From Gammaproteobacteria bacterium (GTDB lineage Bacteria; Pseudomonadota; Gammaproteobacteria; Burkholderiales; SG8-39), in NCBI GenBank assembly GCA_041499545.1, contig JBGQKK010000003.1:1-32765 (forward strand): a DNA stretch of 32,765 nucleotides, given 5' to 3'. Both the position numbers and the translations under genes were made by a program. This document shows, piece after piece, positions 25,225-29,720 of this stretch. How positions within the stretch are numbered: the first letter of the stretch is position 1; each line of letters begins with the position of its first letter. The notes under the pieces are model-generated. The model did no database searches. It was given only the letters and a program-made list of their open reading frames with translations, and was not told where the DNA came from.

Positions 25225-25872
25225 CTAGGGGTTCGAAATGCGCTTGCGACGTGCCGCCGGCGCGGCCTGGAACAGGCCCGCGGCACGGGCAATGGCGGCA
25301 AGTCCGACGAGCGTCTTGGCTCCGGCCTTGCGCATAATGCGCGCGCGATGGATCTCGACGGTGCGGTGGCTGATTGCCAGGCGGCGTGCGATGTCCTTGC
25401 TGGAGTGTCCGGCCACGATGAAGGGCAACACATCGCGCTCACGGCTCGTCAACTCCTGCAGCGCCTTGCGCGCCGCCTCTCGCGACGCGCGTTCCGAGCG
25501 CCGGGCCGCGTCCTGTGCCAGCGCCTCGCCGACGCGGGCGAGCAGGGTGCGGCTGTCGGCGGGCTTTTGCAGGAAATCGATCGCGCCGGCCCGCAGCGCG
25601 CGCACCGAGCTCGGCACATCGCCGTGCCCGGTGAGAAAGATGATGGGAAGCTCGACGCCGCGCGCGGCGAGCGCTCCTTGCAGCTCGATGCCGCTCATTC
25701 CGGGAAGACGCATGTCCAACACGAGGCAGCCGGCCTGCCCGGGCTCGCAGGCCTCGAGGAAGCGCTCGGCGCTCTCGAAGAGCTTCACGCGGAAACGTCT
25801 GCCCTCGAGGAGCTGGGCCAGCGCGTCGCGCACCGCCGCGTCGTCCTCCACCACGTAGACGGTCCCGGTCAC
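25225..25872 (-). CDS. fixJ: FixJ-family response regulator (REC + LuxR HTH)
   Basis: VYVVEDD, CLVLDMRLPGMSG, IIFLTGHGDV, DFLQKP, LTSRE, ISHRTVEIHRARIMRK. GTG at 25872 overlaps the kinase stop (GTGA). Confidence 0.85.
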   Translation of the reverse strand: MTGTVYVVEDDAAVRDALAQLLEGRRFRVKLFESAERFLEACEPGQAGCLVLDMRLPGMSGIELQGALAARGVELPIIFLTGHGDVPSSVRALRAGAIDFLQKPADSRTLLARVGEALAQDAARRSERASREAARKALQELTSRERDVLPFIVAGHSSKDIARRLAISHRTVEIHRARIMRKAGAKTLVGLAAIARAAGLFQAAPAARRKRISNP

Positions 25873-28800: not shown

Positions 28801-29720
28801 GGCCGGTCGCGCAGCAGTTTCGCGTAGTCGGCGAGGCGCTCGATGCGGCTGAGCCCCATGCGGCGCTGCACGCGCCGCAGCAGCATCCCCTTGCGGTAGG
28901 AACGGAAGTCGAACTTGGTGCGCGTGCGCAGCAGCGCCAGGATCGGGGTGAGGTCGGGAGAAACGCTCGCCGGCGCGATGCCGGGCTGGCCCGGAGGAAC
29001 GAAGTGCCTCACGTACTTGATCAGCGCCGCCGGCATCTCCTCGACCGGAAGGACGAAGTCGGCGAGGCCCGAGGCGACCGCGCTGCGCGGCATGGCGTCG
29101 TACTCGGCCGATCGGGGCTCCTGGACCATGGCCATGCCGCCGTTCGCCTTGATCGCCTTCAAGCCCAGCGTGCCGTGGGACCCCGTGCCGGAGAGGATGA
29201 TGCAGAGCGCGCGCTCCTGCTGGTCTTCCCCCAGCGAGCGCAGAAAGATGTCGAGCGACGTATGCACGGCGCTGGGCTCCAGCGGATCGGACAAGGACAA
29301 AATGCCGTCCTTGATGCGCATGTACTTGTTCGGCGGCACCACATAGACGTGATCGGGTTGCACCCGGACGCCCTCGGCGGCCTCGCTGACGGCCATCGCG
29401 GTCTGCTTCTCGAGCAGCGGCACCATGTAGCTCTCGTGTCGGCGATCGAGGTGCGGCACGAGAACGAAGGCGATGCCGCTGTCGGCCGGCATGGCGTGGA
29501 AGAATCTCTTGAAAGCATCCAGTCCGCCGGCGGAGGCGACCATGCCGACCACGGCGAGCGCGGTGCTCGTCCCCGGGCCGTGCTGCAAATCCTGCTGGGA
29601 CGCGGCGAGGTGAACGGCCGGCGCGGCGGCGCGGCGCCCCGCGTCCGGAGGCGGAACGGCGAGCCGGGAGCGCGCGCGGCCGGCCCCTTTCGCGCGCTGG
29701 GTCGGCCTGGGCTTGTTCAT
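25869..29720 (-). CDS. CheB-CheR-coiled coil-PAS-PAS-histidine kinase fusion (1283 aa)
   Basis: CheB [19 protein letters not shown]; CheR [38 protein letters not shown]; EEL heptads; PAS domains; H-box [10 protein letters not shown], G1, F and G2 boxes. Confidence 0.93.
   Translation of the reverse strand: [1283 protein letters not shown]
27415..27635 (-). repeat. Degenerate 21-bp coding periodicity (EEL heptad coiled coil)
   Basis: Recurrent 'agctcctcg' on the + strand encodes [53 protein letters not shown]. Confidence 0.8.

Follow-up and report, generated by a model that had tools for sequence, protein, structure and literature searches.

The classical memory of chemotaxis lies in the reversible methylation of glutamates, which, to our knowledge, is known to act only on chemoreceptors. 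A class of proteins with methyl-accepting coiled coils (MAC) has been described in MiST 3.0, together with a profile hidden Markov model for MAC1 (PMC6943060). MAC1 was named in 2010 by Wuichet and Zhulin (Sci Signal 3:ra50), according to the papers that cite them (PMC6943060; bioRxiv 10.1101/2022.05.07.491037), and is defined, in the accessible text of the second of these, by CheB-like and CheR-like domains within one polypeptide; the same text describes the class, as of 2022, as never experimentally characterised. In Pseudomonas putida, the cfcABCDE genes encode a hybrid kinase, CfcA, alongside CfcB (a CheR) and CfcC (a CheB), and control the diguanylate cyclase CfcR; according to the accessible text of that report a chemotaxis role of this CheR and CheB is ruled out, and the same text mentions no methylation of CfcA (PMC4951495).

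We analysed a stretch of 32,765 nucleotides (the window), which is contig C3 of a metagenome-assembled genome (MAG) of an uncultured organism (2.93 Mb, 64% complete, 357 contigs). Its minus strand encodes one polypeptide with CheB, CheR, a long Glu-rich coil, PAS domains and a histidine kinase core with the H-box HELNQPL, an arrangement noticed in an original prediction made from the letters of the DNA and confirmed here by translation of the open reading frame (ORF) and by Pfam. By its domain content this kinase is a member of the MAC1 methyl-accepting coiled-coil or CheB/CheR fusion class, already catalogued and very large, for it has CheB- and CheR-like domains in one polypeptide, a Glu-pair coil downstream of CheR and the kinase in the same protein. 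We think it rather probable that its own CheR and CheB domains modify the ladder of Glu pairs in its coil and tune its output. The original prediction had proposed the same; the hypothesis had, however, already been published and is not new, the question of self-methylation dating from 2010, which this locus does not change. The parts of the kinase are as follows.

25869..29720, minus strand: MAC1-type CheB-CheR sensor histidine kinase, 1283 residues, soluble (stop-free ORF translation and Pfam)
29022..29549, minus strand: CheB methylesterase domain, residues 58-233, without a receiver in front (Pfam CheB_methylest, 3.3e-51)
28185..28955, minus strand: CheR_N (residues 256-307) and the CheR methyltransferase dependent on S-adenosylmethionine (SAM), residues 321-512 (Pfam CheR, 2.5e-50)
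27711..28058, minus strand: first PAS-like domain, residues ~555-670, a divergent PAS_10 (PAS-type strand and helix pattern in the AlphaFold2 model, module residues 16-131)
27378..27662, minus strand: putative methyl-accepting coiled coil, one 95-residue helix, residues 687-781 (AlphaFold2 and composition)
27462..27614, minus strand: Glu-pair ladder in the helix (EE pairs in the sequence and their conservation in 150 representatives)
27081..27398, minus strand: PAS_10 domain, residues 775-880 (Pfam, 3.7e-29; folded in the AlphaFold2 model)
26595..26939, minus strand: C-terminal PAS domain, residues 928-1042 (Pfam PAS_4, PAS and PAS_9)
25878..26528, minus strand: HisKA (residues 1065-1127, H-box HELNQPL) and HATPase_c (residues 1178-1281), a FixL-like kinase core (Pfam)

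The first PAS-like domain is called a divergent PAS_10 on the basis of two PAS_10 stretches in a homologue (L085). Pfam at E<=0.01 gave neither a Response_reg nor an MCPsignal (PF00015) match in the kinase, and since no hydrophobic membrane segment was seen by the Kyte-Doolittle scale (the highest 19-residue mean was 1.42), the protein is predicted to be soluble and cytoplasmic. As the original prediction had stated, the window is without a methyl-accepting chemotaxis protein (MCP), CheA or CheW, none of which was found in the scan of its 23 ORFs.

The glutamate ladder and its conservation

The EE pairs stand at residues 703, 710, 717, 724, 731, 738, 745 and 752, that is, in eight consecutive heptads that read N/x-E-E-L-x-S/T-x, and the 95-residue helix that carries them is composed of 26 Glu and 1 Asp as against 5 Lys and 1 Arg. 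All three coil peptides quoted in the original prediction were found in the kinase translation. When all frames of the 2.93-Mb genome (six) were searched for at least four heptad-spaced [EQ][EQ] pairs, the kinase coil was the sole place found, and the repeat is far beyond chance. If Asn and Leu are placed at heptad positions a and d, the EE pair falls at b/c, which we take to be the heptad positions of the methylation pairs in the Tar and Tsr chemoreceptors. These b/c pairs are probably the target of the protein's own methylating enzymes.

The AlphaFold2 model, which covers the PAS-coil-PAS_10 module (residues 540-900; 45-sequence alignment; mean predicted local distance difference test, pLDDT, of 84.9), presents in order a PAS-like domain, a disordered linker, an uninterrupted 95-residue helix, PAS_10 and a further helix. 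The long helix takes up module residues 148-242, and its 10-residue blocks have mean pLDDT values of 89-98 from module residue 161 onwards. A sequence search of the module against solved structures returned no match at E<=0.01, and Foldseek with the module model found only generic tandem-PAS proteins (DosP, FixL PAS-A/B, LOV-PAS-HK) at query-normalised TM scores of 0.21-0.30, so that neither search yielded a solved analogue of a long helix between two PAS domains.

Of 8,000 scored candidates, 7,999 matched the kinase at E<=1e-20, many of them under the JGI name 'two-component system CheB/CheR fusion protein', for which the KEGG number is presumably K13924. With the module alone (residues 540-900) as query, a library clustered at 50% identity yielded 19,713 representatives at E<=1e-3, of which 8,151 matched at E<=1e-30. 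Within the best 150 representatives, to which the residue and linkage counts refer, the Glu ladder is the most conserved stretch of the family. Each residue of the five pairs from 724/725 to 752/753 is Glu in 145-150 of them and pair 717/718 is Glu in 129, while Asn at 716, 723, 730, 737, 751 and 758 is present in 138-150. In the two N-terminal pairs Glu alternates with Gln at the second residue (Gln in 34/148 at position 711 and in 12/149 at position 718), as it does at chemoreceptor sites. In the 45-sequence module alignment, 18 of the 26 invariant columns fall in 36 residues of the helix. Because surface positions of a coiled coil would normally vary, the near-invariance of the EE pairs and of Asn counts toward the coil as a substrate.

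The module is also tied to the methyltransferase. CheR precedes it in 133 of the best 150 representatives, the upstream domains being CheB and CheR in 104, CheR only in 29, CheB only in 1 and neither in 16; most of the incomplete proteins start part-way through a domain or right at the module, as gene fragments would. Members in genomes without chemoreceptors were sought in 401 genomes drawn evenly from the phylum, which replaced a hand-picked set of five named genomes (two planctomycetes, a Nitrosovibrio, Competibacter and a Sulfitobacter), all with MCPs. The module was found in 80 of the 401. Besides the source, 79 genomes bear it, and 12 of these are without MCPsignal at E<=1e-3 (11/78 when an unpublished genome, G368, is left out), or 13 if those with no match above the cut-off are taken; the remaining 67/79 agree with the co-occurrence of about 80% given in the accessible text of bioRxiv 10.1101/2022.05.07.491037. 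These 13 genomes are 99-100% complete and belong to 8 genera, and in every one a CheR domain lies directly upstream of the module in the same open frame.

The enzyme domains and a possible self-modification

The CheR part consists of an N-terminal helical domain and a SAM-binding domain with the conserved motifs of the family. It aligns to the solved CheR structures 5ftw (4e-30) and 5xly (2e-28) with these motifs intact, and has 35 invariant columns among 27 homologues. The CheB part, which aligns to the CheB structures 3sft, 6ymz and 1chd, has neither the N-terminal receiver nor the complete Ser-His-Asp triad of a canonical CheB: the catalytic Ser and His are represented by Ser63 and His90, and the position of the canonical Asp286 is taken by His182 (window 29175-29177, minus strand). 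This column holds H in 94, D in 16 and Y in 6 of 120 close homologues, and D in 70, H in 17, N in 6 and E in 4 of 103 wider representatives; in these alignments His for Asp is typical of this clade and a minority state in the wider family. Since His182 is itself conserved among the close relatives, a decay of CheB is argued against, and the retention of Ser63 and His90 in CheB and of the SAM-binding and catalytic motifs in CheR suggests that catalysis has been selected for. Where the CheB triad has Asp, 21 of 70 proteins carry Gln in the first two pairs of the ladder, as compared with 1 of 17 where it has His; as these proteins are related and few, this is no more than a hint of a tie between the triad His and the loss of ladder Gln.

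The CheR domain was also modelled in complex with two coil copies and SAM. The score was 0.35 (runs of 0.32, 0.35 and 0.35), the best of three controls reached 0.01, contact agreement was at least 83% and the partner pLDDT was 86. In the calibration 116 of 157 solved complexes and 2 of 215 mismatched pairs came up to the mark, and the passes at 0.60 or below, as here, comprised 18 of the 157 solved complexes and both mismatches; the result is a weak pass, and its custom alignments and riding ligand lie outside the calibration. We take the prediction as weak support, a small increment for a CheR-coil contact.

The self-modification that we favour would work as follows. In a cytoplasmic, dimeric kinase, the CheR domain would methylate Glu side chains of the EE pairs at their gamma-carboxyl, either in cis or from one subunit of the dimer to the other, and the receiver-less CheB domain would remove the methyl groups from the ladder. 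Each helix chain carries about 21 net negative charges, whose neutralisation should alter helix packing, and the altered packing would shift PAS_10, PAS and the dimerisation and phosphotransfer (DHp) domain toward the kinase or the phosphatase state. If the access of CheR and CheB to the coil also changed with the signals that the PAS domains sense, the outcome would be a chemotaxis-style adaptation acting on transcriptional output. The near-invariant EE pairs, the linkage with CheR, the MCP-free genomes and the weak docking score strengthen the idea of coil self-methylation put forward in the original prediction but cannot prove it.

The regulator, the LOV-GGDEF gene and their surroundings

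The genes around the kinase that are considered here are the following.

25225..25872, minus strand: response regulator with a receiver (REC) and a LuxR/GerE helix-turn-helix, 215 residues (Pfam); its GTG start overlaps the kinase stop
24012..24938, minus strand: LOV-GGDEF diguanylate cyclase with the flavin motif GRNCRFLQG and an intact GGDEF (Pfam PAS_9 and GGDEF)
23402-23770, minus strand: stand-alone receiver of 122 residues, between the LOV-GGDEF and fnr genes
22576..23365, minus strand: Fnr-type regulator with CxxCx5C and a central Cys, three genes downstream of the kinase
21990-22556: hemerythrin gene, part of an anaerobic-respiration island
3609-5246: nnrS, of the same island
Window start: narH, of the same island
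31758 to the window end: hemN (414 bits, cut-off 325)
30392-31801, minus strand: PAS-HisKA_3 kinase of an upstream pair, with an ATGA overlap with its regulator
29742-30395, minus strand: NarL/UvrY-like regulator of the upstream pair, 95% identical in locus L096

The translational coupling by GTGA that had been read from the sequence is confirmed, the TGA stop of the kinase (25871-25869) overlapping the GTG start of the regulator (25872-25870). Upstream, the NarL/UvrY-like regulator stops 21 bases before the start of the CheB-CheR kinase on the same strand. By gene content the kinase lies in an anaerobic-respiration island with narH, nnrS, universal stress protein, hemerythrin, Fnr and hemN genes. 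The NCBIfam models for the LOV histidine kinase and for YtvA score 133 bits over the PAS part of the LOV-GGDEF protein, and this conserved gene suggests a blue-light-controlled cyclic di-GMP (c-di-GMP) output beside the kinase. The stand-alone receiver was considered as a CheB receiver acting in trans and dropped, since its best NCBIfam match, the receiver of a CheB model (50.9 bits), is hardly set apart from UvrY (48.2 bits).

Close orthologues of the kinase are 87-90% identical to it. The REC-GerE regulator follows directly in L096, L098 and L099 (81-90% identity), and in part in L097, and the order of kinase, regulator and LOV-GGDEF gene is kept in all three close-ortholog loci that reach that far (L096, L098, L099). 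The fnr gene and the rest of the island are near this trio only in L096, whereas in L098 and L099 an acyl-CoA synthetase/acetyltransferase gene adjoins it instead. From these loci the conserved unit is kinase, regulator and LOV-GGDEF cyclase. The neighbourhood survey called for in the original prediction upheld the regulator, and added the cyclase to it, but not the pairing next to fnr, which is near rather than adjacent and is kept in one locus of the three.

A wider survey of regulators, made with small profiles, comprised 162 fetched loci, 126 of them with the 3' end of the gene and at least 500 downstream bases; as the loci were fetched by peptide patterns of this kinase, the proportions describe a biased sample. 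Hybrid kinases with a fused receiver made up 80/126, and a REC-GerE regulator was adjacent or fused in 20/126. In five loci of the survey it was fused in frame with the kinase. The combination of a non-hybrid kinase with a separate, coupled REC-GerE regulator was met, in this survey, only in the three close orthologues. The regulator query matched inside the CheB-CheR kinase frame in two alphaproteobacterial MAGs (L031, 6019-10812; L014, 6176-10729). In the first of these Pfam finds two receiver stretches and GerE after the kinase core, a fusion that mirrors the gene pair described here.

The output of the kinase would go to the overlapping REC-GerE regulator, and the conserved downstream LOV-GGDEF gene suggests a link to light and c-di-GMP. 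Taken as far as it will go, this amounts to a two-component transcription pathway with built-in adaptation, in which the kinase would methylate and demethylate its own ladder by way of a Ser-His-His esterase and respond to changes of its signal and not to the absolute level, the LOV-GGDEF protein coupling such a memory by methylation to light and c-di-GMP in an island of anaerobic-respiration genes. We regard this extended scheme as unlikely to hold in full.

Two frames elsewhere in the window appear to be rearranged. At 6764-8005 (minus strand) a fatty-acid desaturase match (residues 34-238) is followed by an ISL3 transposase DDE match (residues 292-413, E 4e-6), so that a gene may have been joined to or cut by an insertion-sequence remnant. 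At 2684-3211 (plus strand) the match of a frame to a short-chain dehydrogenase profile is confined to its first 33 and last 64 positions, and the frame looks like a gene with an internal deletion or a truncated one.

Alternative explanations and known systems

A number of findings weigh against self-modification of the coil. The strict methylation consensus, [ASTG][ASTG]xx[EQ][EQ]xx[ASTG][ASTG], has no match in the whole kinase protein; relaxed at one N-terminal small residue, it has five in the coil and one elsewhere in the kinase. Gln is almost never found in the five central EE pairs, in which they differ from many sites of chemoreceptors. In the model the helix forms one rod and not an antiparallel hairpin bundle of the chemoreceptor type. 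The activity of the CheB esterase is not assured because its catalytic Asp is His, the complex prediction passes only weakly, and our literature search yielded no experimental study of CheB-CheR kinases, MAC proteins or automethylation of fusions. Much of this would suit a conserved signalling helix whose Glu and Asn ladder serves packing or partner binding and not methylation, with CheB and CheR being sensory or regulatory (for instance, of the levels of SAM and S-adenosylhomocysteine) or modifying a non-receptor target, and to it may be added that the triad position is N, E or another residue in more of the 103 wider representatives and that no solved structure or experiment connects the coil with the enzymes. 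Yet CheB retains Ser63 and His90, and CheR its motifs for SAM binding and catalysis, an indication of selection for catalysis; His182 does not follow a pattern of decay, the module is almost always attached to CheR, and the prediction puts CheR on the coil, weakly, above all controls. We believe this explanation to be unlikely.

The fused enzymes could instead act in trans on a conventional chemoreceptor, here PilJ of the chemosensory system for type IV pili, with the coil as no more than a dimerisation rod. The source MAG has one MCPsignal match, and CheW matches only on contigs C56 and C196 (L176, 2-7425; L177, 3-1328); together they represent a pilI-pilJ-chpA cluster of the type IV pilus, whose assembled parts are without pilK or chpB. 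The only CheR and CheB domains found in the MAG are those of the fusion kinase, and its PilJ-type receptor has two strict-consensus sites (433 and 680), a further point against the coil as the substrate; these facts allow for a trans role in this organism. But in a MAG that is 64% complete missing cheR or cheB genes prove little either way, and against a trans role as the function of the family, CheR is still fused to the module in the 12 module-bearing genomes without MCPsignal. Among 12 high-quality genomes of the same genus the PilJ-type receptor is present in all and a CheR match at E<=1e-3 in only 5, so in 7 the receptor does not depend on CheR, and of 24 same-genus genomes drawn no more than 2 yielded a CheB-CheR-coil protein (43-44% identity). 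Action on PilJ would also leave the near-invariant surface EE and Asn residues unexplained, and we consider it improbable. Still less is to be said for an orthologue of FixL, a heme-PAS oxygen sensor driving FixJ in a low-oxygen regulon; the original prediction had named a FixL-type kinase and a low-oxygen pathway. The best solved matches of the kinase core are the FixL kinase modules of the chimeras 8a7f, 8a3u and 4gcz (184-189 bits), FixJ is the best NCBIfam match of the regulator, and fnr, hemN, narH, nnrS and a hemerythrin gene are in the neighbourhood. However, the NCBIfam FixL model reaches 210 bits where its cut-off is 850, and the FixJ model 203.8 bits where it is 255. The best solved relative of the C-terminal PAS is the RpfR PAS 6dgg (1.6e-11), and the FixL heme domains (1d06, 1dp6, 8js5) match it only at E 0.018-0.61 and over query residues 13-79, its first half. 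The trio stands beside other genes in two of the three close-ortholog loci, and the 24 same-genus genomes drawn held no close ortholog of the kinase, the best being 43% identical. In these comparisons the DHp/CA core is truly FixL-like and no other part is, the C-terminal PAS is not a heme PAS, and the regulator is FixJ-like in architecture without being an equivalog; nothing found here indicates direct sensing of oxygen by heme. Of the FixL-class kinase that had been predicted the core stands, whereas the PAS domain and the score of the FixL model do not support it, and the low-oxygen FixL/FixJ pathway is mostly unsupported. We hold orthology with FixL to be very improbable, and the oxygen framing should give way to that of a MAC1 kinase whose core is FixL-like and whose partners are a LuxR-type regulator and a LOV-GGDEF protein.

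If self-modification of the coil, the reading that we prefer, is true, the methylation device of chemotaxis would also tune ordinary two-component systems of gene regulation in a large part of the bacteria, to judge by the module in 80 of 401 genomes sampled from this phylum. The locus is a simple member of its class for testing this, with a non-hybrid kinase, one dedicated regulator and an assembled genome that holds no other CheR or CheB to compete, although the organism is uncultured and its MAG 64% complete. With its MAC1 relatives it shares CheB, CheR, a Glu-rich coil and a kinase in one chain, NEEL heptads common to thousands, and no need of MCPsignal, CheA or CheW. It differs in being non-hybrid with a separate REC-GerE regulator, where most of the sampled relatives are receiver-fused hybrids, and in the triad His of CheB, a state of 17/103 in the wider family.

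In common with chemoreceptors of the Tar/Tsr type and their CheR and CheB, the kinase has both enzyme families, Glu pairs followed by small residues, an alternation of E and Q at the second residue of some pairs, and a negative charge that methylation would neutralise. In contrast, it has a single helix, presumably in a parallel dimer, in place of the hairpin four-helix bundle; it is without MCPsignal homology and without a match to the strict consensus; and its enzymes are joined to what is presumably their substrate, with a histidine kinase in cis as the output. Since its CheB has no receiver domain, no CheA-driven feedback on it is possible. Rhizobial FixL/FixJ has the same HELNQPL DHp/CA core and a REC-LuxR regulator, but the kinase described here is without a heme PAS, the NCBIfam scores of both this kinase and its regulator lie below the FixL and FixJ cut-offs, and it has 900 extra N-terminal residues. 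As in the cfc system of P. putida, so far as the accessible text of that report goes (PMC4951495), CheR and CheB are tied to a histidine kinase and not to a chemoreceptor, and there is a link to c-di-GMP, represented here by the conserved LOV-GGDEF gene; the enzymes are encoded by separate genes there and fused here.

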